A stretch of DNA of 64,000 nt from Eudoraea algarum (GCF_050589645.1 NZ_JBNGOQ010000003.1:392277-456276), one strand, 5' to 3'. Shown: positions 10,843 to 29,430, counted from the stretch's first letter. Numbers and translations are program-made. Notes: generated by a model from the letters alone, not told the origin.

Positions 10843-10847
10843 TTCAG

Positions 10848-11894: not shown

Positions 11895-11930
11895 AAGGTC
11901 TAGATTAATTTAATCTAGACCTTTAAAAAA
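11895..11930 (-). terminator. Perfect 14-bp hairpin (AAAGGTCTAGATTAA/TTAATCTAGACCTTT) flanked by A/T runs; likely terminator of the dehalogenase-like gene
   Basis: Seen directly in the sequence. Confidence 0.4.
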
Positions 11931-12100
11931 CATCAACCACCATCAATCAAAAAACATATTGCAGTTTTCTTTTTTAATAACTTTATCTTTTTTGTTTATA
12001 AAGTGTTCACAGAATTAAAAAAGAGTAACATTATATTATAGCTTCATAATATGAATATTTTAAAGATATCTTGCTTGTGTTTGCATTCCAACTTAAACTG

Positions 12101-13249: not shown

Positions 13250-13315
13250 TTTATCTTAAGTGAAATTGTGAAGAAGAAATGGGAGCCAAAATAGCCCCAA
13301 ATTCAAAGTTGTTTA

Positions 13316-14137
13316 TTACTCTTGAAAGGAGAACTTTGTAAAGACAAAGTCAGCTTTTGCTACTGCGCTCATCATCAGAGGCGCTGCTTTCGTTTTAAAT
13401 TCTTTATTAGCAAATAGTTTTTCATTATCCTCAACGCTATCCCATTCTATTATAAACTGCATCTGTGGTTCGTAGGTAGCTTGACCTTTGGAATCTGTTG
13501 AGATAAGTCTAAGTACAAATTCGGGATACGTACCACCATAATTACGCTTTATGGGTTCTGATACTTCAAAATACTTTTTAATGCTTGTCTGAGCTTGTTC
13601 ACCGGCTTTCAGGTCTACACCTCCAAATTCATAGACTTTATCAGAACGAAATGTCACAATTTTGTCTTTTGCCACCTCGAAGTAGCCAAGATTCATTGTA
13701 TTGATGGCTTCATCTCTGATAGGTGCAATTTTCTTGTACTGTTTGTTCTTCAAAAATTTTAGTCTAGATTCTGCAGTAGGCCATTCGAATATGGCTACCA
13801 TATTTCCTGGTAAAGACTTGCTCTTATTTTTAACTACACCAAAACCGCCAATCATTTTTCCACCATATTGGGCTGCCAATTCCAGAGCTTTTGGAAAATA
13901 TTGTTTATTTAATTGTTCCATCTTGTCTGGTTTGATGTCTGCAAAGGCTAGTTCGTACACTTTTCCTTTTTTAAATAATATAGCTTGAGTCTTTACATCA
14001 TGAGATTCACTGTTTTCAATTTTGGCGTTGGCTACTTTTTTTGGCAACAGTAGCATTGCTACATATTGGTTCTGTGCAATATTATTTTGAACAATAAATA
14101 GTACTGACAAAAATGTTGCTAGTGATAAGAATTTCAT
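13316..14137 (-). CDS. Secreted protein with two tandem DUF1330-like domains
   Basis: Signal peptide; two internal repeats of about 110 aa resembling 11401..11700 (..IIEWDSVEDNEKLFANKEFK..). Confidence 0.35.
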   Translation of the reverse strand: MKFLSLATFLSVLFIVQNNIAQNQYVAMLLLPKKVANAKIENSESHDVKTQAILFKKGKVYELAFADIKPDKMEQLNKQYFPKALELAAQYGGKMIGGFGVVKNKSKSLPGNMVAIFEWPTAESRLKFLKNKQYKKIAPIRDEAINTMNLGYFEVAKDKIVTFRSDKVYEFGGVDLKAGEQAQTSIKKYFEVSEPIKRNYGGTYPEFVLRLISTDSKGQATYEPQMQFIIEWDSVEDNEKLFANKEFKTKAAPLMMSAVAKADFVFTKFSFQE

Positions 14138-14329
14138 ATTTTTCTTTTTTTCTATGTTTTATAATTTTCTTTTTTTCTATACTTAAATAGAAGACAAGTA
14201 TATTTTGAACAAACATAGCCGCTTAAATTTTCGCTACATTATTTATGTGGACAATGGGGAAATTTGATTAAGCATAAAGAATGAAGAGTGGTAATCGGGA
14301 AATATGGGGTAAATGGGAACTTTTTTTTG

Positions 14330-16084
14330 CTAGTTCTGCTTTATAATGTACTCTTTGAGTAATTTATATCTTGCCCTTGATACGGGTATTTGGATTGGGA
14401 TGTCTGGACTTTTAAAATAGGATGTTTTGGAATTACCATAAAGCACTAAATGGTTATTAAGGTTTATAATAAATGATTTGTGGCACCGTTGTATATAATC
14501 GAAACCCCTTAACTGAGACTGAATACTTTTAAGAGTTGCCCTTAAAGTCCTTTTCTCTATTGTACCCATGTTTTTCCAATATAGAGTTGAATAATTGTCA
14601 TTTCCTTCTGCGTACAGAATCTTTTGCGGGTCTATTTCAAATGTCTCTGAGGTTTGCGTATTAATGGTGATTATTTGCGATGGCTTCTCCCTTTGATTTG
14701 TCTTATAAGTTGAATTATCTAGGTTAATTAAATGTAACAAGCTTGTATATTTAAATGTGTTTCTTATTGTATCAAAAATCGGATTACATAAAAACTCACC
14801 AGGAAGTAGACCTAGATTAAACCTAATGCTTCTTTCAATGTGTTTGAAAAACTCTTTTTCTTGATTAAACCCTAACCTGATAATCCCAATGGCATAATTG
14901 AAAAGTCCAGTATTTTGTTGTAAATCTAAATCTCGAACTTCATTTTCTAGTTGCATTGCTTCAGCATAGAAGCCAGATTTTGCAAAAGCAAAAGCCAAGT
15001 ATGCATAATAAATAGGATTATTTTTTTCGGTCTCCTTACAATATTTGAAATCTTCAATTGAACTTTCGATATGCCCCAGAAAGAGATTTGTCAATCCACG
15101 TAATTCAATAATAGGATGAGCATTCTTGTCAATTTTTAAAGCATCAGTGATGTACTTTTTAGCATTGACATAGTCCTTCATATAAATAAGGATTCGAATC
15201 ATCATTGCATAATGAGGTATTGCTAACCCTTCTTCTCTAATGGTTATTTCAGCATGATGCTTTGCTTTGTTGAACTGTTTTTTATGAATATGGTTCATTG
15301 CAGAAGCATGATGTGCCTTAATGTTTTCGCTATTCAATTTTAGTGCTTGTGTCAAGTTAATTTCTGCCTGATGAAAATTCCTATCAAAAAAAATATCGAT
15401 AAAAGCAGCAGAGACGTAAGATTCGGACCTTTTATTATTTAAAACCAAAGAACGATTGGAAAATTTTCTACCAGTTTCAAAAGCCAAAATAGGATTGTCA
15501 TATCCCATGATACCAATAATACTATAACAGTCAGCTATTGCTGAATGTGATACTGCCAGGGACTTGTTTTCTTTTATAGACTTTTTGAAAAAAGAAATAG
15601 CCAAAAGCATTTCTGGATACGTATACCGATGCCAATGATACAATCCTCTTAAATAATATTCTCTAGCTTTTGTCTTATCACTTGTGTCTTTAAATGAAAA
15701 GTTAGATTCACCACCATCTATAATATTCAAGACATTCTTTACAATCAATTTAACCGATATAGTCCATTTTTCTATTTGAACCAAAGTGTCAAAAGCCAAC
15801 AGTTCCTCTTTGGTATCTATCTTAAACAACCGAGTAAAAATTATGTACTCACCATTGATTTGTTTTAGGTTACCTTCTATAAGATAGTCTACTTGATGCT
15901 CGGTTTTTAATTTTTCTAAGGGGATGGGATTAGCTTTGACATATAAACTAGTAGTCCTTGAAGCCGTTTTTATTTGGGAAGATTTTGAAATAAGGTAAAT
16001 AGATTCTTCCAAAATACCCTCTGATAGATGGTGTAAATCATCAAGTTTATCAATATGGTATGGAAGTATAAGTACTTTTTTCAA
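14330..16084 (-). CDS. LytTR-family DNA-binding regulator with an N-terminal small domain and central TPR repeats
   Basis: C-terminal LytTR motif (YIQRCHKSFIINLNNHLV); TPR-like helical repeats in the middle. Confidence 0.6.
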   Translation of the reverse strand: MKKVLILPYHIDKLDDLHHLSEGILEESIYLISKSSQIKTASRTTSLYVKANPIPLEKLKTEHQVDYLIEGNLKQINGEYIIFTRLFKIDTKEELLAFDTLVQIEKWTISVKLIVKNVLNIIDGGESNFSFKDTSDKTKAREYYLRGLYHWHRYTYPEMLLAISFFKKSIKENKSLAVSHSAIADCYSIIGIMGYDNPILAFETGRKFSNRSLVLNNKRSESYVSAAFIDIFFDRNFHQAEINLTQALKLNSENIKAHHASAMNHIHKKQFNKAKHHAEITIREEGLAIPHYAMMIRILIYMKDYVNAKKYITDALKIDKNAHPIIELRGLTNLFLGHIESSIEDFKYCKETEKNNPIYYAYLAFAFAKSGFYAEAMQLENEVRDLDLQQNTGLFNYAIGIIRLGFNQEKEFFKHIERSIRFNLGLLPGEFLCNPIFDTIRNTFKYTSLLHLINLDNSTYKTNQREKPSQIITINTQTSETFEIDPQKILYAEGNDNYSTLYWKNMGTIEKRTLRATLKSIQSQLRGFDYIQRCHKSFIINLNNHLVLYGNSKTSYFKSPDIPIQIPVSRARYKLLKEYIIKQN

Positions 16085-16267
16085 ATCAATATCAATTTTA
16101 CTTAATAAAACCTAATTAAAGATTAATAGCTCGAACTTAACATAAAAAATACATTTAGTTTTCATTGTTGCCTCTTGAATTTCATAAAAACCTTTTGATG
16201 CACCCTATATGAAAAATGAAGTCTGGAGATTTTTTTAGAGAGCTTCTGGATAATTTTTCAAACCGAA

Positions 16268-16768
16268 TCAGAAAAGTAGTTTTTTAACTTTTTCAAGAAA
16301 CAATTCAACGGCAACACCAAAGCCCAATTCGTCGGGTTCTATAAATAATCGGATTTTCCTATGAGGAGAAGAAGAATTTTCATAGTCAACATCAAAAATA
16401 AGAACTTCTGGGACTATTATTGATAATTTGGTAGTTTCGAAGAATCCGATTTCCCGAAATCTATCTTGTTGTATACTCCAAATACCACTATTGGAATATA
16501 CTGTATCATTTCTAACAAGTCGGTACTCCATGTTGTTGAAGTCATTGAAACTAAAATTACCCAAATTCCCAACCTCATCAACTACTGCAAGTCCATTAAG
16601 TCCATTTTCAATAAACTCACCATAAAATGACTTGATTTGCACAACTTCCCATTGTCCGATAAGGAAATCAACATCATTTTGGAGGTCATCTGGTCGGCAG
16701 GAAGCAAAACAAAAAATCAGCAGAGCCATTATAGAGGGTAAGCTGCGATATAAAATTTTAAAGTTCAT
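16268..16768 (-). CDS. Lipocalin-like lipoprotein, hypothetical
   Basis: Lipobox LIFCFASC; 166 aa. Confidence 0.35.
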   Translation of the reverse strand: MNFKILYRSLPSIMALLIFCFASCRPDDLQNDVDFLIGQWEVVQIKSFYGEFIENGLNGLAVVDEVGNLGNFSFNDFNNMEYRLVRNDTVYSNSGIWSIQQDRFREIGFFETTKLSIIVPEVLIFDVDYENSSSPHRKIRLFIEPDELGFGVAVELFLEKVKKLLF

Positions 16769-16965
16769 TCTTTTTCTTTTTATGGTGCACCAGTATTTGT
16801 ATTCTGAATTGACAGAAAATCACATATTTTCATTTTTCTTGAGAATATCGATGTATTTATACTCCTCAGAAAAGTTAAAATTTTAAAGAGGTCAGATTTT
16901 TTTTGGTATTATTTATCCTTACCGGGAACTAATGGATATATAGATTAATCTTAAAAGTATAAAGT

Positions 16966-17400
16966 ATGAAATCTAAAAAAAATGCTCACTTATTTTTGAT
17001 ACTAAGCTTGTTACTAATTACAGGATGTAATAATGAGGATGATTCAAATTCAACTAAGATAAACCCTGTTCCATTGGTCTTCAATGGGGATTTTGATTCA
17101 GATAAATCTAAACTAGACGATTTGTTAAATGATATTAAAACTATATCCAGCAGTGTAATTTGAACTACATCCGAGGATTGGCTTATTACTCCTATCGGGA
17201 CAAAATCTTGTGGAGGTCCATCAGGATATTTGGCATATTCAAAGAAAATCGATATGTCACTTTTTGCAGAATATGTTGAGATTTATAGAATCAGTGAGGA
17301 TATATTCAATAGGAAATGGGAAATTATATCCACTTGTGATATTGAACCAGAACCGATTGGAGTTAAGTGCGAAAATGGGACTGCTATATTAGTATTTTAA
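16966..17400 (+). pseudogene. Lipoprotein gene interrupted by an in-frame TGA at 17161-17163. The same frame stays open for 79 more codons (TTSEDWLITPIGTKSCGGPSGYLAY...ENGTAILVF*).
   Basis: Lipobox LLITGC; no start codon downstream of the TGA; a 79-codon open frame in roughly 30% GC DNA is unlikely by chance. Confidence 0.4.
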
Positions 17401-17459
17401 AGTGCAATAGTTATATGAAGAATATATTAATTAGGTTTTTTATTAATATACCTGGTCAT

Positions 17460-17822
17460 CTAGGGTTTTGGTAATCTCGGATAAAACTGTACTAGAGTAT
17501 CCTTTCGTTCGATTAGCATGATTTTACATTCATCTACAGAAGATACGCGATGGTTAATTCCTTTTTGAACTACAAATAAGTCACCGGTATTCATATAAAA
17601 TGCCTTTGATGATTCTATTTCCATTAATAGCTTTCCTTCTAATAAATAGAACAGCTTGTCACTGTTTTCGTGATTGTGCCATGGAACTTTATCTCCTTTT
17701 ATCTTAACCACTTTAATATACTCATTATTAAGAGAGGCAATAATCTTAGGTGAGAACCAATCTTCTAGCAAGTGTGATTCATATAGTGCGTTCTTATTGA
17801 TATTTGACTTTTTCACAACCAA
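17460..17822 (-). CDS. Cupin domain protein
   Basis: WHNHENSDKLFYLLEGKL cupin motif. Confidence 0.6.
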   Translation of the reverse strand: MVVKKSNINKNALYESHLLEDWFSPKIIASLNNEYIKVVKIKGDKVPWHNHENSDKLFYLLEGKLLMEIESSKAFYMNTGDLFVVQKGINHRVSSVDECKIMLIERKDTLVQFYPRLPKP

Positions 17823-17939
17823 TTAGTTAATGTTCATATCAAAAAATCACAGCATACATTTATTATATCTTTTCTAAAAACTAAAAAGTGTGATTTTATT
17901 TCCTCAAACTAAACTAATGAGATTGATAAGATTGGATAT

Positions 17940-18395
17940 ATGAATATTCGGAGTGCAACATTACAGGATAAAGAGAAGATTATTGAACTAGTGAAAACTG
18001 GGCTCAAAGAATTTGGGTTTGAGTACTCATCCACAACTTCAGAGTTAGACCTAGAGGACTTTGCCGAGGTTTACTTAAACATTGAAAACACTTTTTTAAT
18101 TATGGAAACTTCTCAGGGTAAATTGGCAGCTACCGGTGCATTACTAAAAGAAAGAAATCATGATAGTTATAAAATCCAGAAAATGTATGTTTCCAAAATG
18201 TATAGAGGACTAGGGTACGGTAAATTAATGCTGGAGCAATTTATACAATTAGCAAAAAGTAATAAGGCTCAAATTATTTTATTAGAAACTTCCAATCATA
18301 TGAAAACTGCTATTGGTTTATACAAAAGTTACGGTTTTAAAGAAACCTGTGTGATTCCTAAATCTCCTCGTTACAATATTACAATGACAAAATAA
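17940..18395 (+). CDS. GNAT family N-acetyltransferase
   Basis: YRGLGYGKLMLEQFIQLAK acetyl-CoA binding motif. Confidence 0.7.
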   Translation: MNIRSATLQDKEKIIELVKTGLKEFGFEYSSTTSELDLEDFAEVYLNIENTFLIMETSQGKLAATGALLKERNHDSYKIQKMYVSKMYRGLGYGKLMLEQFIQLAKSNKAQIILLETSNHMKTAIGLYKSYGFKETCVIPKSPRYNITMTK

Positions 18396-18469
18396 ATATG
18401 ATTTTTTGTGATTTTATACAAAAACTACATACTAATAGGGCAAGAAAAATATTTTAAATCTAAAAAATT

Positions 18470-18574
18470 ATGAATCAGAATAAGACAATTACGACATCGA
18501 AAACAGTAAATAGAATCTTACTTTTTATTTTGAGCGCTATAGGATTTGCACTATGGTTTTGGTTATTCACCTAA
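18470..18574 (+). CDS. Small single-TM protein (34 aa, MNQNKTITTSKTVNRILLFILSAIGFALWFWLFT), immediately upstream of the XRE HTH gene
   Basis: Below the ORF-track size cutoff; a GTGATTTT motif lies about 55 nt upstream; 15-nt gap to the HTH gene. Confidence 0.25.
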   Translation: MNQNKTITTSKTVNRILLFILSAIGFALWFWLFT

Positions 18575-18588
18575 AGGATTTTTAAAGT

Positions 18589-18786
18589 TTGATGATTAAT
18601 CGAATAAAAGAGTATCGAAAGATTAATAATTTTTCACAACAAAAATTAGCTTCAATACTTAATATTTCAAGACAAACACTTTCTAATATAAAGAATCAAA
18701 AGCAGGTTCCCTCTTTGATAATAGGACTTAAATTATCAAGAGTATTTAGTGTAGATGTTAATGGGCTTTTTCAACTAAAACCTTAG
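18589..18786 (+). CDS. XRE-family (YozG-like) helix-turn-helix transcriptional regulator
   Basis: 65 aa; HTH QQKLASILNISRQTLSNIKN. Confidence 0.6.
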   Translation: MMINRIKEYRKINNFSQQKLASILNISRQTLSNIKNQKQVPSLIIGLKLSRVFSVDVNGLFQLKP

Positions 18787-18791
18787 GAATA

Positions 18792-19502
18792 ATGAGAGTT
18801 TTAGGACCAATTGGTGGTATTAGTTGGGTGTCAACAAGAGATTATTATATACAAATAAATAAAGGAATAAATGCACAATTAGGCAATCTAAACTACGCTG
18901 AATGCATGATTTATTCTTTTAATTATCAGAAAATTAAAGATAATAATGATGCAAATGATTGGAATTCCACTTTGAAGATGGTCGTTATTGCTTCAAAAAA
19001 ACTGGAAAAAAGCGGTGCCAAGGGTATAGTCCTTTGTGCAAATACAATCCATTTTATTGCTGACCAAATTGGAAAAGAAATTAATATTCCTATAATTCAT
19101 ATTGCTACATCTACAGCTCTAGAAATCAAAAGAAATGGATTGAGAAAGATTGGTCTTTTAGGAACAAAGTTTACGATGGAATATGATTTTTTCAAATCTA
19201 AACTAGATGAGCAAGGAATAGAAGTGTTGATTCCGAAAAGTATTTCAAATAAGGAATTTATTCATGATACTATCTTTAGCGAACTGGGAAAAGGCATAAT
19301 CAGAACAAAAACTAAAGAGAAGTATTTATCAATTATTAAAGAATTAATAAATGATGGAGCTGAAGGAATTATAGCAGGATGTACAGAGATACCGCTGTTA
19401 ATTAAAGAATCTGATATTTGATTGCCTTTTTTTGATACAACCAAAATTCATGCCGAAGCCGCCGTAAAATTTGCTCTATCTGATGAAAAAACTACCTCAT
19501 AG
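18792..19502 (+). pseudogene. Aspartate/glutamate racemase family protein (YgeA-like), truncated by an in-frame TGA at 19419-19421. The conserved C-terminus (LPFFDTTKIHAEAAVKFAL) continues in frame to a TAG at 19500-19502.
   Basis: Both catalytic motifs are present (VLCANTIHF...; GCTEIPLL). The post-TGA peptide matches the canonical racemase C-terminus (..LPVFDTAAIHAEDAV..). Confidence 0.55.
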
Positions 19503-19532
19503 TTTTTGTAGAATAATATAAAAAAGGTTTAT

Positions 19533-20435
19533 ATGAAAATGAAGCAATTAGTTGATGAGAAATTTAATTCATTGATAAAACTAATAGTTTTTAGCTTTAT
19601 TATCGGTATTTCCGCTAACTCTTGTATCAATCAGAGTTCGAAAAATAAGAATAATCAAATGAATGTAATGGACAGCACAGAAACCAAGGAAAATATACTT
19701 TTTATTCATGGATTTCCAATGAGTTCTTCTATATGGAAATCTCAAGTAAGCGCTTTAAATAAGGATTATAATTGCTATGCAATTGATTTACCCGGATATG
19801 GTAAAAACTTGAGTCAATACGAGTTCAATCACTCTATAAACTCATATTCCGATTATGTTTATCAATATATTAATGATAATAACCTTGCTCCTGTACATAT
19901 AGTAGGAATGTCCATGGGAGGGTCTATAACGTTAAATATGTCTCGTCGTTATAATAACATTCTGAAAAGTATGACCGTAATACATACTAGTGCTATAATA
20001 GATACTGATGAAGATAAGAGGAAAAGAGATATTACGATTGCTGGTATTGAAAAAGGTGGATTATTGGAGTTTATTGATGACTTTGCCGACCGTTTATTAA
20101 GCCCAAAATCAAAGGATGAGATAAGACAGAAATATATTTGTCAAATGCGTGAAGCCTCTCAGGAAGTTGTTATTGCTGGTTACAAAGCCATTCGAAATAG
20201 AGAAGATGAATCATCTAACCTTTCAAATTTAAAAATCCCTGTTTTAGTGGTTGCTGGGAATGATGACATAGGTTCTACGCCTGAAGAAATGAAAGAAATT
20301 GCAGAGGCTATACCAAATTCAACTTTCAAAATTATATCAGACTGTGGACATGTTGCTCCTTTAGAACAGCCACAAAGATTAAATGAAATTCTTTCTGAAT
20401 GGTACAATAATATAATAAATGTGGAGAAACCTTAG
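19533..20435 (+). CDS. Alpha/beta hydrolase
   Basis: HGFPMSSSIWKSQV...; GMSMGG nucleophile elbow. Confidence 0.6.
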   Translation: MKMKQLVDEKFNSLIKLIVFSFIIGISANSCINQSSKNKNNQMNVMDSTETKENILFIHGFPMSSSIWKSQVSALNKDYNCYAIDLPGYGKNLSQYEFNHSINSYSDYVYQYINDNNLAPVHIVGMSMGGSITLNMSRRYNNILKSMTVIHTSAIIDTDEDKRKRDITIAGIEKGGLLEFIDDFADRLLSPKSKDEIRQKYICQMREASQEVVIAGYKAIRNREDESSNLSNLKIPVLVVAGNDDIGSTPEEMKEIAEAIPNSTFKIISDCGHVAPLEQPQRLNEILSEWYNNIINVEKP

Positions 20436-20484
20436 TGTAGGTATAAACTACCCCAAGATAGTTTAACTCAAAATAAAATATACT

Positions 20485-20895
20485 ATGCAAAAATTAACGG
20501 TAACCTTTAGTGTAATACTTTATGCTATTGCAGTTCCGTATCTGGAAATAAATAATACACATGTATTTAATCCAGATTGGACACCTCATGTTAGAATTCA
20601 CGAAGTTTGGCAACTAATTACTAATTCTGTTATTGGAGTATTGTGCCTCTGGTTGGTTTGGAAGAAGAGAGATAAATGGATATCTACACTCCTTAGCATG
20701 TTTATTACTGGAGGTTTTTTAGTAGCTTATATGTTGAAAGAAACATATGGAGGCTCCATGAAGTATCTAGACGGAAGTGAAAAAACTTTAGCTGGAATTA
20801 ACATTGGAGTTCTGGGCTTTGGAGTTGCTTTTTTACTTTTAAGTATTACGTTATTTATTAGTGCAAAAAAGAGAAATAAAATGAAACAACATTAA
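20485..20895 (+). CDS. Hypothetical membrane protein
   Basis: About four hydrophobic helices. Confidence 0.35.
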   Translation: MQKLTVTFSVILYAIAVPYLEINNTHVFNPDWTPHVRIHEVWQLITNSVIGVLCLWLVWKKRDKWISTLLSMFITGGFLVAYMLKETYGGSMKYLDGSEKTLAGINIGVLGFGVAFLLLSITLFISAKKRNKMKQH

Positions 20896-20943
20896 GAAGA
20901 GAACAGAGTATGTTACAAGTTACACTAATGATGAATTGAAATT

Positions 20944-21438
20944 ATGATGTATACACCAGCAGATGGTTTCCCTTATTATTTTGACTTGGTTAATGGTGAT
21001 AGCTTACAAACACTTTTTACTACAATATCAACTTTCGATTTTTTAAAATCAATTCCTGAGGATAGAGTCATATACCGCTATGAACCCAATAAATGGAGTA
21101 TAAAACAAATAATAGGACATATAACCGACCATGAAAGAATAAAAATGTTCAGAGCATTTCAGTTAAGTAGAAATGAGAAAACACAATTATGGGGTTATGA
21201 CCAAGATTTTCTTATTAACCAAAGTCGTTTTGATGATTTGGAAATGCAACTTTTACTAGTCGATTTTCTAAATGTTCGGAAAGCATCTATAAGTTTTATT
21301 GAAACCTTATCGGAAATTCAATTAAAAAATACAGGCTGGGCTAAAGATTATGAAATTACGCTTGAAGACTTTCTCAAATCAATTATTGGACATGAGTTAC
21401 ATCACTTAAATATTATCAAAGAAAAATACTTATTATAG
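20944..21438 (+). CDS. DinB/YfiT-like family protein
   Basis: DinB_2-like histidines (IIGHITDHERI...IIGHELHHLNII). Confidence 0.5.
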   Translation: MMYTPADGFPYYFDLVNGDSLQTLFTTISTFDFLKSIPEDRVIYRYEPNKWSIKQIIGHITDHERIKMFRAFQLSRNEKTQLWGYDQDFLINQSRFDDLEMQLLLVDFLNVRKASISFIETLSEIQLKNTGWAKDYEITLEDFLKSIIGHELHHLNIIKEKYLL

Positions 21439-21493
21439 TAGAGATTAAAAAAAGTAAATGAAAGAAAAGAAATAGAGTCTCAAGAAATAAAAA

Positions 21494-22189
21494 TTATAAT
21501 ATTTTAAGCAAATCACTGGGGGTTTCAATTTCAAAATCAGGTCTATATGTCCACGCTCTTGTGTCAGCACTGCTGTATTTTGCAGTAACAGCAATTACTT
21601 TACTATTATTATCTAATTTCATTTCAATATTTCTTGCAAATTCAATATCACCTTCATGGTCTCCTATATAAATAATAGTTTTGTTAGCGGTATTTTCGAA
21701 TATTTGCTGTAAACATTTTATTCCGCCAAAAGGAATTGGTTTTTGATAATTATTTGGGATATCATTATAACCAATAATTGAGTTGAACTTATCAAGTAAG
21801 CCATTTTCCTTTAAAACACATTTAATGTTATCCGATGCATTTTGAGAGCAAATACCCTGGGGTACATGAATTTTACTTATAGTATGTTTAATATCAGAAA
21901 ATAACTTTACAGGGATTGTGTTTTTAAGCTGATATTCTGTCCATAAAGCCCCAGCTTCAATCATTTCAACCTCGGACATTCCGTAATAATTTATATATAA
22001 ATCTTGCCAATTTTTAGATTGATGATTGGCAATATGGTACGAATCTTCACTTTTTAAGGCATCTGGTAAGTTTTCTCCTGTTAGCCTAGGTGTTACTACT
22101 GAAAGAATCTCCTTGGTAATATCAATATTCTTTGGAACTGAATTCACTAATGTTCCGTCAAAATCCCATAGCACTGCATCAACATTCAT
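21494..22189 (-). CDS. HAD family hydrolase
   Basis: Motif I DFDGTLVNS. Confidence 0.65.
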   Translation of the reverse strand: MNVDAVLWDFDGTLVNSVPKNIDITKEILSVVTPRLTGENLPDALKSEDSYHIANHQSKNWQDLYINYYGMSEVEMIEAGALWTEYQLKNTIPVKLFSDIKHTISKIHVPQGICSQNASDNIKCVLKENGLLDKFNSIIGYNDIPNNYQKPIPFGGIKCLQQIFENTANKTIIYIGDHEGDIEFARNIEMKLDNNSKVIAVTAKYSSADTRAWTYRPDFEIETPSDLLKIL

Positions 22190-22222
22190 AAATCATTAGT
22201 TATAATTTTTTTTAAAATAAGA

Positions 22223-23152
22223 CTATTGATTTATTTTAATATTGGTTAACTTGTAAAAAGGATAATCAACATTCTCTTTTACACATTCCTCAATTATATA
22301 ATCTACCAAGTAATATTTTTCGTTGAGGTTATCTTTTTCATAATCTAGTTGCAATGAAGACTTGGCTTCATAGGGAAATTTGGAAAGTAACCCTATAGAA
22401 GTTTGTATATCCATTTCAGACAAATCTATTCCTTTTATTGAGGCCAGTTTTCTCAGTTCGTACATCATATTCTCTAGGGACAACATTAGTTCTACATCAA
22501 TAAGAAGTTCTCCAAATGTTACATTGTAGGCCGTAGTAATAGCTGCCACCGGCGCAACAAAAAGATACTTTTTCCACAAAACTGTTTCCATATCTTTTAC
22601 AAATGATATATCAATTTCTGCATCCTTAAAAACCTTAATTAAAACTTCATGTGTTTTTAGCAAATTGCCTCCTATAAAGATTTTACCTGGTCCTCCTAAA
22701 TGTTCAACATAACCTGGTTTTTTTATGTTAGATGCTACATAAATGCATCCATCCAAAATGTTGAACTCATTATTACCAAAGTTTTCAATTATAACTTCTT
22801 TGGCGTTGACCATATTTTGCAAAGTTATGATGGTGCTATGCGTATCTAAACAACTTCTATAGCTGTTTATGGCATCTATTAGTGAAAAGGATTTCGTGGT
22901 TACCAATAAAACATCTAAAATTCCTATTTCTATTGGATTATCGGAAACTAAATGAGGACGAACATTTTCAATCTTATCTCGGGATTTGATTGTGAGTCCA
23001 TTTTTTACAATTTCTTCTTTTGTGTCTCCTCTGCAGATAAAAATGATTTCGATATCATTTTCATTTTCAGGATAGTAGTGTTTTGCCAACGGTGCACCAA
23101 CAAAACCACCAATTCCACCAATTCCAAGTATTCCAATTCTCATTTTAATCAT
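22223..23152 (-). CDS. panE: 2-dehydropantoate 2-reductase (ketopantoate reductase family)
   Basis: N-terminal Rossmann MRIGILGIGGIGGFVGAPLAK and ApbA/PanE-like length and architecture. Confidence 0.65.
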   Translation of the reverse strand: MIKMRIGILGIGGIGGFVGAPLAKHYYPENENDIEIIFICRGDTKEEIVKNGLTIKSRDKIENVRPHLVSDNPIEIGILDVLLVTTKSFSLIDAINSYRSCLDTHSTIITLQNMVNAKEVIIENFGNNEFNILDGCIYVASNIKKPGYVEHLGGPGKIFIGGNLLKTHEVLIKVFKDAEIDISFVKDMETVLWKKYLFVAPVAAITTAYNVTFGELLIDVELMLSLENMMYELRKLASIKGIDLSEMDIQTSIGLLSKFPYEAKSSLQLDYEKDNLNEKYYLVDYIIEECVKENVDYPFYKLTNIKINQ

Positions 23153-23603
23153 ATTAAGTTTTGAATAAAGACAAGCTTCACTTTTTGATAGTAGTGAAGC
23201 TTGTTAGATGCAGAAAGGGCAAAATAAAGTATTTGTAAATTCATTATATTCTGCGCAAAATTCTAAAGTCTTACTATATAATTAGTATTAATTGGATTTC
23301 ATTTATCACAAAAATTTATTGATTTTTTTTACTCCAATTGGTTACAGCCAACTTTTCCATTTCCGCCTCATTGCTTAACCACGGCACGATAGTATTAAAT
23401 GGTTTCCCTTCCCAAAAATCATTATAAAACAAGTATAGTTTACCATTGCGAAAGCGCAATAACCATTAAATTATACTCAAACTAGCTCATAACTTTAATT
23501 TTTCCTGTATGTCAAAATGATTTTTTGACTTTTTTTATCTGAGAGTTAGCATTAGATTTATAATTAGTCTGTTTTCATTTTCTTTTATGTCTAGAATTAA
23601 TTG

Positions 23604-24197
23604 TTATTGATAACTAAATGGTGTTTTACCCAAGAACTTTCTGTAAAGACCAATCTGACCTAATTCATATCCCAAATGATGCATTTGAAAGCCGTACAGC
23701 CCACGCACGGTCTGTTCAGGAAATGGCAGTGGGAAGGGCGCTGCCGAATCCAATTGTTCTTCAGTTAGGTTGCCCAGGGCTTCGGCGATTTTGGGGATCA
23801 AGACATCAAAATCTTCCCTCATTTTCGAAAGGGACGGATGGTCTGCTTTGGGGTCAAAAGCCTTTCCGAAGGCAAACTGCTCGGCATACGGATTTTCAGT
23901 AGCCTGCCCCAATAGCATGGCCAAGTTATATTGAATGTCTACCATATGGCCAGCAATCCATGCCAGGCTATTGGCATTGTTGATGCGTCTGTCGGCCTCG
24001 GTATCTGAGATATCGTTTAGGTTTTTTGAGAATAGTCCGGCCTGTAATTCGTACTGTGCTTTCAGCACCTGTATGTCAGTGGGTTTATAAACCTCTTTGA
24101 TAACTTCCTTTTCCACTTTCTCAGCTTTTTGTTGGCAAGAGGCGATGGTTAGGGCCAGAATCAGAACGACCAATACTTTCATTGTTATTTTTTTCAT
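23604..24197 (-). CDS. DinB-family lipoprotein
   Basis: Signal/lipobox LTIASC; DinB_2-like histidines (IAGHMVDIQ...QMHHLGYELGQ). Confidence 0.5.
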   Translation of the reverse strand: MKKITMKVLVVLILALTIASCQQKAEKVEKEVIKEVYKPTDIQVLKAQYELQAGLFSKNLNDISDTEADRRINNANSLAWIAGHMVDIQYNLAMLLGQATENPYAEQFAFGKAFDPKADHPSLSKMREDFDVLIPKIAEALGNLTEEQLDSAAPFPLPFPEQTVRGLYGFQMHHLGYELGQIGLYRKFLGKTPFSYQ

Positions 24198-24207
24198 TGC
24201 TAATAGT

Positions 24208-24717
24208 TTAGGGATTATGCGGCTTTTTTACTTTTTTCTTAAAGTATTTTTGGTCAGATTTTATTTTGGCTTCTGATTGTTTTCCTGTCTCGATATAGTA
24301 TTTCAGGTCTTCCATTGTTTGATAGAGGTCCTTGCGCATCTTAGGCTTTATCATCCAACCCATAAGTAAGCCAGGGACCGTTGCAAGTGTCACATCCAAG
24401 TCCATGGTAACTTCCGAGGTGTTGATACTTAAAGATTTTACTTTCCAATTGGCAGTGGCGGCCTTCATAATAAAGGGAGTATCATCCAAATGATATTGCA
24501 GCTCCATCCGCTCCTCATCGGCCCGGTCAATGATTTCACTAACGTCACCAAAAACGGTTGAACAGGTTCTGCCTATGTATGCGCTATTCTGAACTTCACG
24601 TTCTTTGGATTCATTTACCGTGCTCGCCCAATCACAAGAACTGCCATAGTTGGTGTAGAGCACTTCCCAAACTTTGGAAGCTGGGGCATTTATCTGTAAG
24701 GATTTTTTAAATTTCAT
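24208..24717 (-). CDS. SRPBCC family protein
   Basis: INAPASKVWEVLYTNYGSSCDWAS, typical SRPBCC N-terminus. Confidence 0.55.
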   Translation of the reverse strand: MKFKKSLQINAPASKVWEVLYTNYGSSCDWASTVNESKEREVQNSAYIGRTCSTVFGDVSEIIDRADEERMELQYHLDDTPFIMKAATANWKVKSLSINTSEVTMDLDVTLATVPGLLMGWMIKPKMRKDLYQTMEDLKYYIETGKQSEAKIKSDQKYFKKKVKKPHNP

Positions 24718-24876
24718 ATGAAGCTACATTTGTGTTTTTTGCCTATTTATTATCAGGAAAACAAAGGGTTTGGATTGACTTTATTTGACTTTTAGATTCA
24801 AAAGGAAGGTTAATGTGACAACTTTGCATAAAAAAACCTGAACAAGTGTTCAGGTCTTTCCATCAAGGGGTGAAAA

Positions 24877-25398
24877 TTACCAACCGACATAATTAGGAGA
24901 TTTAATGTTTTTCATACGTAAACAAACAATTGCCTGTGCTCGGTGATGGGTACAGTGGTCGAAAACGATATTTAAAATTTTTCTCCTGGTCATTCGACCT
25001 GCCCAAAAAGAAGTGGTCTCCTCAAAGTAAGATTGTTCTTTATTTTCAATAGCGTTCTGTAAAGCCCCGTATTGAGCTTTCAAATAAGAAATAACCTCTT
25101 CTTTGTTGTTAGAATTGGGTTGTTTTACAGTTTGGAACGACAGTCCCGAGTTGCCGATATAGGCCATCCCCTCTCCAATATGAACAAGTTGCTCACCAAA
25201 GGAGCGGACATCCTCTATGGGTTTATAATTGTAATGTGCTTCTGGCATCTTATTGGCTACATCAAGCGTATATTCCAGGCTGTTCTTCAGCTTTTTGAGG
25301 TACTCGTTTTTAAAATTGCTTTTTTGTGCTGTCATAGGAAACCAAGATGTTATCAATAGGGTGCTGGCTATGGTAAAGATTTTTGGAAGTGACATCAT
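24877..25398 (-). CDS. DinB family protein
   Basis: HCTHHRAQAIVCLRM; start overlaps the sigma gene stop by 1 nt. Confidence 0.55.
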   Translation of the reverse strand: MMSLPKIFTIASTLLITSWFPMTAQKSNFKNEYLKKLKNSLEYTLDVANKMPEAHYNYKPIEDVRSFGEQLVHIGEGMAYIGNSGLSFQTVKQPNSNNKEEVISYLKAQYGALQNAIENKEQSYFEETTSFWAGRMTRRKILNIVFDHCTHHRAQAIVCLRMKNIKSPNYVGW

Positions 25399-26276
25399 CA
25401 GTTCAGTTTCATCAGGTCTTTGATATGCTTGTCGTTCAAGATATCCTCCAAAAAGGTTTTCTTGTCAAAGTCCGCCTTATAAGGTAATTGACCATAGAGT
25501 TCCGCATATTTTTCGTCCACAATGTCCAGCATCTCATCGGCATCCTTCTTAATGTAATTTCTAAAGTTTGAATATTCCTTTCGATTAAACAGAAGGTTTT
25601 TGCTGTCGATAACCTCATTGTCCATAGCGAAGGTCACTTTTTTATGGCAACGACAAGGGTTTGCTTTGTTGACCAACCCGCACTTTTCGTTCATAAAATT
25701 GAAGAGGTCCCGCCGTGCACGGGAGAGTTTCTGCCGGAAGTTGTCCTTGGAAATATCCAAAATCCCGGAGCCAATGGTATGGTCTGCATTGAACATTTCG
25801 CCTACTATATATACCAGTCGCTGCTCGCGGGTAAGGCATAAAAGCATTCCGCTCATACAGCTGTAATTCATCTCTCTGATAAATTGCTTTTTTTCTTCCT
25901 GCTCCAATGGGGTAAGGGGTTGGTCTGGTGTCATATCGAGCCCTTGGGCCATTTTATCAAAGCTTTCAAAGACCGATTCATTGGGTCTCCTTTTGGACAT
26001 TAGGAAATGGTTGGCCACGATACGATAGGCCCAGGTCCTGAAGGCGCTCCTACTTTCAAATTTTGATAGGTTGGTAATGATCTTTATGGTGGCTTCCTGG
26101 GTAAGATCTTGTGCATCCGCAGGATTGCGCACCATTTTCCAGGCAATATTGTAGATGTAAGGTTGATGCTTTAATATCAAATCTTCCAATGCCTGCTTGT
26201 CACCAGTCCTGGCCAGCGAAACCAATTGCTCATCGGTCTTGTCGCTTTTATATTCTTTTAAAAACGGATTGTCCAT
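25398..26276 (-). CDS. Sigma-70 family (ECF-like) sigma factor with a C-terminal extension of about 115 aa containing C-x8-C-x-C
   Basis: Region 2 (QDLTQEATIKIITNLSKFESRSAFRTWAYRIVAN) and region 4 (LTREQRLVYIV), then an extension with CGLVNKANPCRCH. Confidence 0.65.
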   Translation of the reverse strand: MDNPFLKEYKSDKTDEQLVSLARTGDKQALEDLILKHQPYIYNIAWKMVRNPADAQDLTQEATIKIITNLSKFESRSAFRTWAYRIVANHFLMSKRRPNESVFESFDKMAQGLDMTPDQPLTPLEQEEKKQFIREMNYSCMSGMLLCLTREQRLVYIVGEMFNADHTIGSGILDISKDNFRQKLSRARRDLFNFMNEKCGLVNKANPCRCHKKVTFAMDNEVIDSKNLLFNRKEYSNFRNYIKKDADEMLDIVDEKYAELYGQLPYKADFDKKTFLEDILNDKHIKDLMKLN

Positions 26277-26406
26277 CGTACACTTTATTATTTAGATGCG
26301 CTTTCGCGAAAGCTGTGACAACTTTTTTAAATAAAAAAATAGCAAAACCTGTCACACAATTTTTATGGTGCATCCAAAGGAAGTATAATCACTAATTAAT
26401 AATATA

Positions 26407-26916
26407 ATGAAAACTGTGAAAATGATAGCCTTGGCAGCATTCGTTGCCTTTGGTTTTACACAAATGAACGCTCAAAATGCTGATGCCAAAATCACTAAAA
26501 CCAAAATAGTGGAAGCATCTGCCGACAAAGTCTGGAACGAGTTGCGAAAACTTGACAATATTGATGAAATTTCAAGTTTTGTTGGTAAAGTCGAATTCAC
26601 TGGGCCTAAAGGTGCGGGAGGAAGCCGTGTTTGTACCGCCCCGGATGGAAAGGGCAAATTCAAGGAAAATATCCTAGCTTTTGATGATGCCACCAGAAGC
26701 TATACCTATGCGGTAGTGGAAGGTGTGCCTGCGGCTGGAATGGTCAGTAATTTTAAAGTCGTTGATTTAGGGTACAACAAATCGATGATCGTTTGGACAT
26801 CTACTTATGAGAAGTTTATGCAAAACCCACAGATGACGGAGGAGCAGTTCAATGGTTTCCTCAATCAGGCTTCTGGTGAGATGATGAATAATGTGGCAAT
26901 AATGGCTTCTAAATAG
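26407..26916 (+). CDS. Secreted SRPBCC domain protein
   Basis: Signal peptide; KIVEASADKVWNELRKLDNIDEISSF. Confidence 0.5.
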   Translation: MKTVKMIALAAFVAFGFTQMNAQNADAKITKTKIVEASADKVWNELRKLDNIDEISSFVGKVEFTGPKGAGGSRVCTAPDGKGKFKENILAFDDATRSYTYAVVEGVPAAGMVSNFKVVDLGYNKSMIVWTSTYEKFMQNPQMTEEQFNGFLNQASGEMMNNVAIMASK

Positions 26917-26973
26917 CCCCGAACTCATTATTCTGATTAAAAAGGGTCAAAAATTTTCCGTTTTTGACCCTTT

Positions 26974-27816
26974 TTACACAGTTGATTCTCTGAACAAAGT
27001 GGGAGATAAATTATAATGCCTTTTGAACAATTTTGAGAAATAACCAGGGTCATTGAAGCCGCAATCATAGGCAATCTCAGAGACAGAAGCCTTGGAATTT
27101 CGTAGCAGTCTGTTGGCCCTTTCCAACCTTTTAGCAACAATATAGCGGGAGAAAGTCGTATTGAATTCTATTTTGAACTTTCTTTTGAAGGTCGATGGAC
27201 TCATGTTGGCGATGGCCGCCATTTCATCCAGTGACACGTCCTCAAAAACATTGGCATCGACAATTTCATGTAAGGTATAACTTTCCCTGTCAAATAAAGA
27301 TGAAAGCAGCTCTAGGATGGGGTTGGGATTTCGGCTGTTGACGAGCAGCAAGGTCAACTCTTTAATCTTCAGTGCTACCAGTTCTTCGGTGGCCAACTCC
27401 CGATTGTCGAAATAGAAGAAAAGGCCATCCAAATATTTCTTTAATAGCACATCCAAATCCACTAGTGCATTCGACTTTTTTGACGATGCGAATGTGTCTA
27501 GTTTTCCAATGGCCTCTGATTCCAATATGGACTGCATCACCTCAGGGTGCAATCGCAAAAGGACCACTTCCGCTACTTTATCTTCGGTAGTACCATGCCA
27601 TTTGTTGACATAGGTGCCGCATTTCATCAAGACACCCTGTCCTTCACTTACCTCGGTTTTACCATCTGCGCGATAAAGACTGCCTTTGGTGTTTATGGGA
27701 AAGATAAAGCAGGCCGAATTACCCAAATCGGATGCAGCCACCAATGGCGGTGAAAAGGTGAAATGGCTGATGACGGCCCTTCCACCCAATTCTAAATGTC
27801 GCTGTGTCAAAATCAA
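26974..27816 (-). CDS. AraC family transcriptional regulator
   Basis: C-terminal AraC HTH (VSEIAYDCGFNDPGYFSKLFKRHYNLSPTLFR). Confidence 0.7.
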   Translation of the reverse strand: MILTQRHLELGGRAVISHFTFSPPLVAASDLGNSACFIFPINTKGSLYRADGKTEVSEGQGVLMKCGTYVNKWHGTTEDKVAEVVLLRLHPEVMQSILESEAIGKLDTFASSKKSNALVDLDVLLKKYLDGLFFYFDNRELATEELVALKIKELTLLLVNSRNPNPILELLSSLFDRESYTLHEIVDANVFEDVSLDEMAAIANMSPSTFKRKFKIEFNTTFSRYIVAKRLERANRLLRNSKASVSEIAYDCGFNDPGYFSKLFKRHYNLSPTLFRESTV

Positions 27817-27822
27817 GAGGTC

Positions 27823-28932
27823 TTATTTATATAGATGCCTTATTTTCTTCCATTTCTGCTCCGTTACTTTCTCACCGGTCTTGGCGTGGTAATCTATACC
27901 ATGGGCATAACGTTGAAATGCCTTGCGCATGGGTGCTTTGGCCAAACTTTTAAAAAATCGCGGCCTGGTAAGATAGTTAAAACGAATTTTTAGTAAGGTT
28001 TTATTGTTTGAAATTTTGGTTGCGTCCATATTGACCCAGCTGTAGTCGATGTTCAGGTTGCCGAAGCCTTTCTTATCCACTATTTCAATGGTGATGTGAT
28101 GGTTTTCAGGGTCGTATTTTGCTATTTTATCTACGAAGTATTTTTTTTCACGATTATTGGTCATGTACATGATGCGCATAGCGCCCACTTTGGGTTCGTT
28201 ATGTCCTGATGACCATTCGGAATAGGGACAGTTGGGATTGCTGTCTGCAACGTCTGCAAAACCCTCCCCTATGATTTCCCAAACGCGTTCTACTGGGGTA
28301 TCGATTTTTTGTTCGACCTCCACAACGGCGATTTTTTTCCTCATTTTGGTATCTTTTGACACCTTCTTCCCCATAATTTCCACCTTTCGGGGATGGGGTT
28401 CACCCGTCTCTACGAAATGTTTTAGTTCTTCGGCCTTGTTCTGAAGTACTTTGGTCAATTGTTTACGCATCATCCATTTCATGGTGAGTCCCATAAAACC
28501 TCCAACACGCATATCGTTGTAGGATGTCCAGATGGTCTTGTCGCCCTTAGGCGTAAGCTTGTCTTTGTTGATAGAGTATCTGACGAAGCCTGGTAGCCCT
28601 TCATAGAGTTCGTACTCGAAATAGTAATTCTCAGGCTCCCATTTGATGACACGTTCTCTTGTGTCATTGAATCCGGCAGCACTGATGGAACAAAATCGTT
28701 TGGCATCGCCTCCCTCGCCGCTGAACTCGACCACATGGTTTACTCCCGAGGCCCATTTGCCGATGCCTCCGTAGTCCACAGCAAGTGCATTCCAAACGGT
28801 TTCTATGGGTGCATCAATTTCGATTTCATAAGATGCCTGAAGGTTGGGTTCTTTTCTCTCCATATCTTGAGCTTTGACACCTTGAATGCCTAAGAACATT
28901 ACAAGGATCATTAACATGATTTTCGTTTTCAT
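27823..28932 (-). CDS. Secreted protein with two tandem SRPBCC domains. The ORF extends to 28998, but the signal peptide begins at the Met at 28932.
   Basis: MKTKIMLMILVMFLGIQGVKAQ signal peptide; two WNAL../VWEII.. SRPBCC-like repeats. Confidence 0.5.
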   Translation of the reverse strand: MKTKIMLMILVMFLGIQGVKAQDMERKEPNLQASYEIEIDAPIETVWNALAVDYGGIGKWASGVNHVVEFSGEGGDAKRFCSISAAGFNDTRERVIKWEPENYYFEYELYEGLPGFVRYSINKDKLTPKGDKTIWTSYNDMRVGGFMGLTMKWMMRKQLTKVLQNKAEELKHFVETGEPHPRKVEIMGKKVSKDTKMRKKIAVVEVEQKIDTPVERVWEIIGEGFADVADSNPNCPYSEWSSGHNEPKVGAMRIMYMTNNREKKYFVDKIAKYDPENHHITIEIVDKKGFGNLNIDYSWVNMDATKISNNKTLLKIRFNYLTRPRFFKSLAKAPMRKAFQRYAHGIDYHAKTGEKVTEQKWKKIRHLYK

Positions 28933-29129
28933 AGTTCTAGATTTTATGAAAACAAAGTTGAAAGAAACACTAGATAAAGGTTGGGAATAATAGGTCAATC
29001 AATAGGATTTATAGACCAGAGTATTGTGATACTTGAAGAACGCCATAATAAAGTTTAAAATCTGTTGACCGATTTGTTGACATATTATATCAAATCAATT
29101 CAAATTATATGATTGTCCAAAAACAACGA

Positions 29130-29166
29130 AACCTTGCAAATCATAGATTTTGCAAGGTTTTTTATT
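29130..29166 (+). terminator. Rho-independent terminator (AACCTTGCAAA-loop-TTGCAAGGTT then TTTTATT) with no annotated plus-strand gene upstream
   Basis: 10-bp stem followed by a T run. Confidence 0.45.
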
Positions 29167-29185
29167 CGTTTGGAGTTTCCTCCCT

Positions 29186-29202
29186 GTGACCTCGACAGGA
29201 TT
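29186..29202. repeat. 17-nt direct repeat (GTGACCTCGACAGGATT) duplicating the 3' end of tRNA-Arg (29356..29372); att-site-like scar
   Basis: Exact 17-mer match 170 bp from the tRNA 3' end. Confidence 0.6.
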
Positions 29203-29323
29203 ACCTTCGGTTTTCCCTTGAATTCCCCTTTGCAAATAGAAAGCCTTATGGCTTCGCCATACCTTTTATTTTATTACAAGATTGGAAAGCATTAGCTTTC
29301 CATCTTTCCATAAAACAAAAAAC

Positions 29324-29342
29324 CCATTACTTGCGTAATGGA
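29324..29342 (-). terminator. Hairpin (CCATTAC..GTAATGG) followed by a T run on the minus strand, directly downstream of the tRNA-Arg 3' end
   Basis: 7-bp stem then TTTTTTGTTTT on the minus strand. Confidence 0.45.
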
Positions 29343-29356
29343 CGTTCTGCTTGTAG

Positions 29357-29430
29357 TGACCTCGACAGGATTCAAACCTGTAACCTTCTGAGCCGTAATC
29401 AGATGCGCTATTCAGTTGCGCCACGAGGCC
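29357..29430 (-). tRNA. tRNA-Arg (anticodon ACG)
   Basis: 74-nt cloverleaf folded by hand: acceptor GGCCTCG/CGAGGTC, D-stem GCGC/GCGC, anticodon stem TCTGA/TCAGA with loop TTACGGC, T-stem ACAGG/CCTGT with T-loop TTTGAAT; CCA not encoded. Confidence 0.85.

Follow-up and report, generated by a model that had tools for sequence, protein, structure and literature searches.

Mobile DNA at the ends of tRNA genes is a well-known route of bacterial gene gain, and tandem accretion at tRNA genes, including tRNA-Arg genes of Flavobacteriales, is equally well known. In the islands of the Islander catalogue, which carry a tyrosine integrase, a regenerated tRNA gene and a displaced 3' fragment mark the island ends (PMC4383910). 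An island of Riemerella (Flavobacteriales) integrates at an Arg-tRNA gene via a tyrosine integrase, and both its integration and its excision were shown experimentally (PMC6764341). CIMEs and accretion at att sites were described for ICESt1/ICESt3-type elements and streptococcal IMEs, with a three-step model in which integration is followed by decay to a CIME and by integration of a newcomer at attR (PMC5704250). Tycheposon islands display successive integrations, degenerate remnants and scattered partial tRNAs (bioRxiv 10.1101/2020.12.28.424599).

We analysed 64,000 nt of Eudoraea algarum (GCF_050589645.1, NZ_JBNGOQ010000003.1:392277-456276), called the window below, in which a tRNA-Arg(ACG) gene is accompanied by a second copy of its 3' end (Table 1). 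Like the Islander islands, this locus has an intact tRNA, an exact direct repeat of its 3' end from the T loop, low-GC strain-variable DNA starting at the repeat and an arm homologous to arms that lead to a tyrosine integrase in relatives. Unlike them, the window island has neither an integrase nor a distal fragment, and the two repeats bound just 153 bp. Since the integrase and the distal fragment are both missing, we classify the locus as a hot spot of known type that holds a decayed island together with a CIME-like mini-unit. Its likeness to the Riemerella island is one of site. The Riemerella att repeat has 53 bp and consists largely of downstream sequence, whereas the window core has 17 nt and is mostly tRNA, and Riemerella-type elements are intact and mobile, whereas the window island is decayed. 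The mini-unit, named U170, resembles CIMEs in that it is integrase-less, lies between two att cores and shares its target gene with another element placed in tandem. Moreover, the CIME accretion model fits the order tRNA, U170, core, island. In contrast to CIMEs, U170, which is known here from sequence, is far smaller (~170 bp) and gene-less, and it recurs across genera, in arrays of up to six cores. The Prochlorococcus tycheposons also have marine hosts and form islands beside tRNA genes, with repeated integration at the same site and remnants; however, they belong to another phylum and have another integrase architecture, no replication or packaging modules were seen here, and we do not claim membership. 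Only the recurring mini-unit goes beyond textbook knowledge.

Table 1. Features of the tRNA-Arg(ACG) locus, in window coordinates
Feature	Position	Strand	Evidence
Rest of the strain-specific island, continuing to ~690 bp past the left end of the window	1..29053		strain comparison, GC, Pfam
Island cargo: SRPBCC protein (369 aa) and AraC regulator (280 aa)	26972..29018	-	L074 homology, Pfam
tRNA-proximal (P'-type) arm of an integrase-family integrative element, left-truncated	29054..29185		blastn to integrase-adjoining arms
Distal 17-nt core (DR2): displaced tRNA 3' end, U170/island junction	29186..29202		repeat search, strain comparison
U170 interior: integrase-less noncoding module between the two cores	29203..29355	-	homologous units in related genomes
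Second small hairpin with T run, facing the opposite way, terminator-like on the plus strand	29247..29261	+	terminator scan
Intrinsic terminator hairpin with T run, proximal end of U170	29322..29343	-	terminator scan, RNAalifold
Proximal 17-nt core (DR1): tRNA positions ~58-73 plus 1 nt downstream	29356..29372		repeat search
tRNA-Arg(ACG), intact, attB-bearing target	29356..29430	-	ARAGORN, Infernal

The 17-nt repeat and the strain comparison

Within the whole 64-kb window, GTGACCTCGACAGGATT occurs in two exact copies, both on the plus strand, and there is no third copy at up to 3 mismatches. ARAGORN placed the tRNA-Arg(ACG) gene as listed in Table 1 and Infernal (RF00005) at 29357-29430, full length with 59.1 bits; the gene does not encode CCA. 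By these two placements, the proximal 17-mer comprises the 3'-terminal 16 nt of the tRNA, from the last part of the T loop over the 3' strands of both T stem and acceptor stem to the discriminator, and one further nucleotide. ARAGORN and Infernal/Rfam detected neither a pseudo-tRNA nor any known RNA in the spacer, which measures exactly 153 bp, or at the distal copy. An earlier note on this DNA had placed the two 17-mers at these same positions, as the tRNA 3' terminus plus 1 nt, some 153 bp apart, and had held that they did not arise by chance, and our searches agree with it on all of these points. Indeed, 0.07 matches to the 17-mer are expected by chance, and none of 100 dinucleotide-preserving shuffles contained two or more.

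The right-flank protein (29863-31161) has an identical sequence in two kinds of genome. GCA_038077475.1 (L002 and L003; L numbers are our labels for loci and contigs) is collinear with the window at 99.6-99.97% identity. At the left boundary of the repeat, this sister strain (L002) has two base differences, one at the first position of the 17-mer and one at the preceding nucleotide. The conspecific GCA_947494825.1 (L001) is 99.35% identical to the window from 29184 rightwards, that is, over the distal 17-mer, the 153-bp spacer, the tRNA and the right flank, and is unrelated to the window left of this position. Homology to L001 ends 2 nt past the left edge of the distal 17-mer, which thus marks, to within 2 nt, the start of strain-variable DNA. 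The two types of genome converge again ~690 bp past the left end of the window (L003 11451 = L001 7162), so that ~29.9 kb of the window-type strain are missing from L001. The place of the island is taken in L001 first by 98 unique bp that the window-type strain lacks, then by a degenerate core and another copy of the spacer unit (96.7-97.7% identity); a 16-nt core, a 1.88-kb KAP-family NTPase module and the common distal 17-mer follow in this order. The variable DNA of L001 is therefore att-bounded alternative content and not a clean deletion, and the island varies in presence between L001 and the window, with the break at the att core.

The left island and related elements with an integrase

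The GC content is 30-38% in 1-24 kb, ~10 points under that of the genome, ~40-42% in 24-30 kb and 40-58% right of 30 kb. Since the step lies at ~24 kb and not at 29.2 kb, the 30 kb may be composite, with at least two acquisitions (1-24000 and 24001-29185). According to Pfam, the gene content of the island is accessory (SRPBCC, DinB, AraC, sigma factors, hydrolases and GNAT), and the ~29 kb left of the tRNA contain no mobility genes. The first gene past the arm (27823-28932) encodes an SRPBCC protein, for which an exact-sequence look-up returned no match. Several families have paralogues in the strain-specific segment, with five SRPBCC, three DinB and two to three sigma-factor genes; it also encodes two AraC-type regulators, one of them beside a GNAT-free hydrolase cluster. 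Just past the left end of the window, where the island has its left junction, is a fragment of an asparaginase gene (L003 10630-11120), and a small lipoprotein-like ORF with an in-frame stop lies at 16940-17400; both are signs of gene decay in the island.

At the left junction with the common flank, examined in L003, we found neither the core (up to 3 mismatches) nor the arm, and the limits of the island thus rest on the strain comparison and not on an att pair. The sole extra copy of the tRNA 3' end is at the near end of the island, and none marks the far end as a displaced fragment does in Islander-type islands. Elsewhere in the window, blastn with the arm gave chance-level matches only. An inverted loose core match at 17204 was considered as the far end and was dismissed, as it lies inside a small coding region.

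Pfam detected no integrase among the ORFs of at least 140 aa that were searched, namely most of those in 1-32.7 kb and several further right. When 42 integrases of the tRNA-Arg element family were compared with the six frames of the window by tblastn, the best hit had an E value of 0.14, and the same 42 queries detected neither an integrase nor a fragment of one in the window, in the 0.7 kb beyond its left end, in L003 or in L001. The earlier note's statement that the window has no integrase gene is thus upheld, and neither the tyrosine-integrase remnant nor the TBLASTN hit that it had proposed to look for came to light in the window, L003 or L001. With no integrase and no distal att site found, the island appears to be decayed and is most likely immobile, probably fixed in place.

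A scan with the right-flank protein, limited to one genome per species, yielded 69 Flavobacteriaceae loci, 15 of which keep tRNA-Arg(ACG) upstream of the right-flank orthologue. The proteins encoded downstream of the tRNA have no counterpart in the window in any of the 15 orthologous loci, and the downstream content is another one in each of the 15 species, versus a conserved upstream side; the only trace of window-like cargo is an SRPBCC homologue at the extreme end of the F. meridianipacifica locus. The tRNA is followed first by a gene for a ~420-aa tyrosine integrase with the domains Arm-DNA-bind_5, Phage_int_SAM_5 and Phage_integrase in Flagellimonas hymeniacidonis (L069) and F. meridianipacifica (L008). 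This domain combination is absent from the window island, and family membership is thus a property of the relatives' elements only.

The stretch between the integrase start codon and the core in F. meridianipacifica (L008/L074) is 87.2% identical over 149 nt to window 29054-29202 (blastn). Arm and core of the window are also 84.5% identical to the ICE contig L079, which carries conjugation genes, 83.7% identical to L065, whose arm adjoins the real tRNA (blastn), and 82% identical to Euzebyella marina (L076); the arm only is 73-76% identical to L093-L097 (Muricauda ruestringensis, F. profundi). An arm homologous to 29054-29185 lies between the 3' terminus of tRNA-Arg and a tyrosine integrase gene in at least 7 other Flavobacteriaceae genomes (73-87%), and is missing from 9 of the 15 orthologous loci. 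This homology identifies 29054-29185 as the tRNA-proximal arm of an element and the distal 17-mer as its att core; an element-derived att arm thus adjoins the core, as expected of an island, and the integrase gene that is absent from the window adjoins the homologous arm in relatives. The arm contains TGTTGAC(CGAT) repeats (29062-29080), a AAATCAATTCAAAT box and, ~25 nt from the distal core, a bidirectional terminator hairpin (29128-29161; terminator scan).

Integrase homologues abound: of 8000 scored candidates, 7991 reached E <= 1e-30. We inspected the genomic context of six of them. Five share one syntenic locus, consisting of tRNA-Arg(ACG), core, ~25 nt, a terminator hairpin, repeated arm motifs and the integrase gene; in the sixth, contig L079, arm and core lie beside the integrase gene, with no tRNA in the stretch examined. 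An integrase of ~410-420 aa follows the arm directly downstream of tRNA-Arg(ACG) in L069, L008/L074, L073, L076, L092, L093/L094 and L097. Each element brings other cargo, namely an MMPL/TetR block, Fic/HEPN/AbiV genes, Tra genes plus a SMODS gene, a nos cluster or a SusC/SusD PUL. The tRNA-Arg(ACG) locus is thus a hot spot of gene gain and loss in this clade of marine Flavobacteriaceae, where the same site has received conjugative elements, defence genes, a nitrous-oxide reductase cluster and polysaccharide-utilisation loci. Elements lie directly at the tRNA in L065, L069, L076, L093 and L097; in the window and in L008 the element lies behind units and not at the tRNA, as it does in L092 with a short 31-nt form. 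Over a 12.4-kb stretch with the tRNA and the element, metagenome contig L073, from a different species, is 97.5% identical to L074, versus 72-78% in the core flanks, which argues for recent horizontal transfer of this type of element.

The SRPBCC and AraC genes of L074 (17747-19797) lie 6.5 kb past the integrase gene and are 76% identical over 2056 bp to window 29018-26972. Missing from the window are 7.8 kb (L074 9912-17746), which comprise the inner arm and the genes for the integrase and five cargo proteins. By these homologies, the island is related to the F. meridianipacifica element and is decayed.

Further arrangements were seen among the related elements. The integrase protein and the nos (nitrous-oxide reductase) island of L093/L094 (Muricauda ruestringensis) also occur at a non-tRNA site in L095 (7755-8072) and L096 (7420-7741), where the junction GTTTGAACTCTGTCCTCTTGAGGTCAC resembles the tRNA-Arg 3' end and could be a secondary attachment site or an old displaced fragment. 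In L079 (8367-11257), two divergent integrases surround a single core without a tRNA; the core lies between the arm and ACCTTTGTTTTT, an arrangement that corresponds to attP or to the junction of two tandem elements. Units of ~31 nt lie between the tRNA and the integrase element in L008 (8221-8314, equal to L074 9670-9779), L073 (9702-9779) and L092 (9720-9767), each consisting of a T arm and an acceptor 3' strand. Their acceptor variants CGCGG, CGTGG and CGAGG are unlike the resident tRNA and match the tRNA-Arg of other species, and the tRNA of L073 sits where L074 has a mini-unit. These units look like a record of earlier hosts carried by the element.

The 153-bp unit between the cores

Units of the 170-bp type were found in L001 (two copies), L004, L021, L080, L081, L085, L087, L088 and L089. 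Nine such units from nine loci, with interiors of 149-162 bp, align with a mean column identity of 75% and share the invariant blocks AAGCAGAA.GTCC, TAAAAT and CTTTCTATTT. Interior identity to the window unit is 0.68-0.80, compared to a shuffled maximum of 0.65. Tandem units within one genome are 96-97% identical, versus 68-80% between genomes, which indicates recent amplification.

Extra cores downstream of the tRNA were present in 5 of the 15 species loci and in the window's own species, always on the same strand, and the number of units in related genomes ranges from 0 to 6; at up to 3 mismatches, an extra core is absent from 9 of the 15 orthologous loci. The extra cores mostly match the tRNA variant of their own genome (L006, L007, L021), but the L008 mini-units do not. 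Core spacings are 170 and 114 bp in L004, 142 bp in L006 and 1780 bp in L007; L008 has three units of ~31 nt, and the seven cores of Poritiphilus flavus (L021) are spaced by 173, 174, 1721, 173, 170 and 164 bp. Regular arrays with periods of 114 or 173 bp occur in L081 and L021. When metagenomes were scanned for the junction TTCTGCTTNNNGTGACCTCNNCAGG, 12 contigs were obtained, 9 of which show tRNA-Arg(ACG) and 6 of which have 1-4 units behind the core. None of these 12 contigs contains an integrase of the tRNA-Arg element family. Viral contigs scanned for both U170 junction patterns gave no matches, and nothing thus suggests a phage origin; no full-length parent of U170 was found in the metagenome and viral contig scans.

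The proximal terminator of U170 starts 12 nt past the end of the tRNA. Its helix is kept in 9 of 9 units, with compensatory changes in 5 pairs, and this A-tract/hairpin/U-tract structure directly after the core is the only helix that RNAalifold supports. The spacer beyond it has two further small hairpins. One of these, the opposite-facing hairpin, is kept among the units with a varying stem sequence and is absent from the RNAalifold prediction. We rejected AGAAAGTCC and GGACTTTCT as partners in a long-range pairing, as the positions vary without covariation and the first block pairs with the terminator U tract. In an Infernal search, only the tRNA passed; the 153-bp spacer had no Rfam match, all others being at E >=0.65 and far below gathering scores. 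The spacer contains no credible gene, and the ORFs that cross it (60 and 52 aa) overlap the tRNA gene or the island arm. On both sides, the 15-20 nt adjacent to the core resemble the arms of integrase elements, for instance ACCTTCGGTTTT... compared to ACCTTTGTTTTT... of L079; at the distal arm, the likeness to an element P arm extends over ~20 nt and concerns this one contig. No complete element of the tRNA-Arg integrase family with both att ends was recovered.

The two 17-mers are thus the bounds of a separate ~170-bp unit and not the attL/attR pair of a large island. As in a CIME, identical attL and attR cores flank the 153 bp, which contain no recombination or transfer genes. By its recurrence and conservation, U170 is a recurring module and not a random remnant of a deletion. 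Most economically, it would be read as a miniature, integrase-less, CIME-like element that has both att ends and supplies the tRNA terminator. It differs from an integron-like cassette array in lacking an integrase, in having tRNA 3' ends as repeats and in modules with terminators of their own.

These data affect several claims of the earlier note. Its view that the repeat is a signature of tRNA-targeted integration stands, but not the assignment of the 17-mers to the two ends of one large element. Its proposal that the element had been mostly deleted does not agree with a recurring module, which is no one-off remnant. The alternative that it had offered, with the repeat at one end of a larger island on the left, is the better of the two, given the arm homology and the break in L001. 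Further copies of the 17-mer, which it had proposed to look for in related genomes, exist in the 5 species loci and, as the unit junction, in the 12 metagenome contigs. Finally, it had named duplication at all tRNA-Arg loci of unrelated taxa as a sign of a conserved structural feature rather than an att scar. The unit does recur in many relatives, which touches on this point in part, but the 9 loci without an extra copy, the variable copy number and the use of the same core by integrase-bearing elements speak against such a feature.

Small modules without an integrase were also seen elsewhere. In Poritiphilus flavus R33 (L021 6899-9490), the seven cores past tRNA-Arg(ACG) include four ~173-bp units that are mutually 96% identical. 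The core of these units is split by a 26-nt hairpin-forming insert, CAGG|CTTGCCTGCCATAGCCTTGGCGACGG|CAGGATT, and a similar split core is present at L001 7243-7275. A 1.7-kb module with one AHSA1/SRPBCC gene breaks the L021 array. The one-gene KAP-NTPase module of L001 (7443-9321) and a module of L007 (5318-7080) with two ORFs of unassigned function are each bounded by cores and have in common a terminator hairpin beside the core, AAGAGTCTAAGTATCA.TACTTAGACTCT. They look like a third type of small att-bounded module without an integrase.

Probable integration and accretion, and the rival explanations

The earlier note's central claim, site-specific integration targeted to the tRNA, gains support from the homology of the arm and from the strain break 2 nt past the distal core. 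We consider it probable that the tRNA-Arg(ACG) gene is an attB site and that the window holds an accreted U170 and a decayed, integrase-less island, a reading built on the repeat, on the homologous arm, on relatives that have an integrase at this site and on the polymorphism between strains at the core. The gene would serve as attB for elements with a Bacteroidota-type tyrosine integrase, whose attP would include a duplicate of the tRNA's 3'-terminal ~16 nt. Recombination would regenerate the tRNA and leave a displaced copy of its 3' end, and the element would also bring a terminator hairpin ~15-25 nt past the core. The tandem order along the tRNA strand would then be tRNA, core, U170 (153 bp), core, truncated arm and ~30-kb island. 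The distal 17-mer would be a composite att junction, with the end of U170 on one side and the tRNA-proximal arm of the island on the other. The island would have lost the 7.8 kb with the integrase gene, part of the arm and the distal att site. We infer that the distal core, and not the tRNA itself, was the integration site of the island. As the two strain types have an identical U170 and differ in the DNA past the distal core, U170 is probably the older resident, and larger elements would have been added at the distal core, in the order U170, then island. Integration would explain why the left and right halves of the window differ in composition and gene content, and for annotation, 1-29185 should be treated as a decayed island.

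Several results count against this explanation: neither an integrase nor a fragment of one was detected in the window and the adjoining 0.7 kb, the left junction shows neither core nor arm, the GC step is at ~24 kb, and no element of the family was recovered with both att ends. The conservation of U170 across genera at about the level of coding DNA, with no integrase nearby in the 12 metagenome contigs, also counts against it, as it fits a neutral scar poorly. U170 and the distal core could instead be a selected functional module, or an actively propagating non-autonomous miniature integrative element, and not a scar, a reading that overlaps with ours, differs from it only in the nature of the 153 bp and seems to us possible but doubtful. 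As a selected module, U170 would be a "landing pad" that ends transcription of the tRNA, blocks antisense read-through by its opposed hairpin and offers a spare attB outside the tRNA. The uniform length and invariant blocks of the units at nine loci, the compensatory changes in the terminator helix, the elements that lie behind units, the identity of U170 in both strain types next to different DNA and the higher identity of tandem copies all fit such a module, but 9 of 15 orthologous loci do without an extra core, five loci have their element directly at the tRNA, and RNAalifold backs the terminator helix alone, with no Rfam match. That such units form a whole family of gene-less miniature integrative elements or "landing pads", spread by trans-acting tRNA-Arg integrases in marine Flavobacteriaceae, is in our opinion unlikely. 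If it were true, arrays of spare attB sites would let one-gene modules (KAP NTPase, AHSA1-like) and whole islands slot in and swap with the tRNA untouched, and U170 would amount to an integrase counterpart of MITEs or to a platform for cassettes. Even a mobile or selected mini-unit would be a small addition to the knowledge of integration-site evolution.

The remaining explanations do without an integrated island or without an integrase altogether. According to one of them, which we judge a little less likely again, the left 30 kb are ancestral chromosome, from which L001 lost 30 kb by deletion, and a small element was deleted leaving the arm and U170. A left junction without an att site and the absence of mobility genes in the Pfam and tblastn searches agree with this, as does the GC content of 24-29 kb (~40-42%), at the low end of the right-side range; SRPBCC and AraC could be old tRNA neighbours in common with F. 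meridianipacifica. However, SRPBCC/AraC lie inside the 97.5%-identical transferred block of L073/L074, no window-like protein follows the tRNA in the 15 orthologous loci apart from the F. meridianipacifica trace, the GC content of 1-24 kb is ~10 points below the genome's, and L001 holds different, att-bounded content at this place and no clean deletion. It is very improbable that the distal 17-mer is left over from a tandem tRNA-Arg gene or arose by unequal crossing-over or replication slippage without an integrase. Tandem tRNA genes are common, and the regular 114- or 173-bp arrays (L081, L021) could grow by unequal crossing-over, but the two copies match at 17 of 17 positions with an abrupt drop on both sides and no decayed tRNA body adjoining, the left flank is the arm of an integrase element, and cores bound unrelated modules of 1.7-30 kb. 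The probability of a chance match is negligible, in view of the shuffles described above and of the copy kept in sister strains and in other genera. Integration at the tRNA followed by accretion thus remains the explanation that we prefer.

Some further features were noted on the right side of the window. Most related genomes have a gene for a 170-aa phosphoribosyltransferase directly upstream of the tRNA (e.g., L074 9034-9546), which the window lacks in the interval 29431-29862 that separates its tRNA from the 432-aa gene. A SusD/SusC (TonB-dependent receptor) pair at 46566-51031 has a GC content of 54-58%, versus 40-47% around it. The 1152-aa protein encoded at 56555-60013 is a fusion of B12-binding, MeaB GTPase and methylmalonyl-CoA mutase parts, an IcmF-like architecture that is ordinary.
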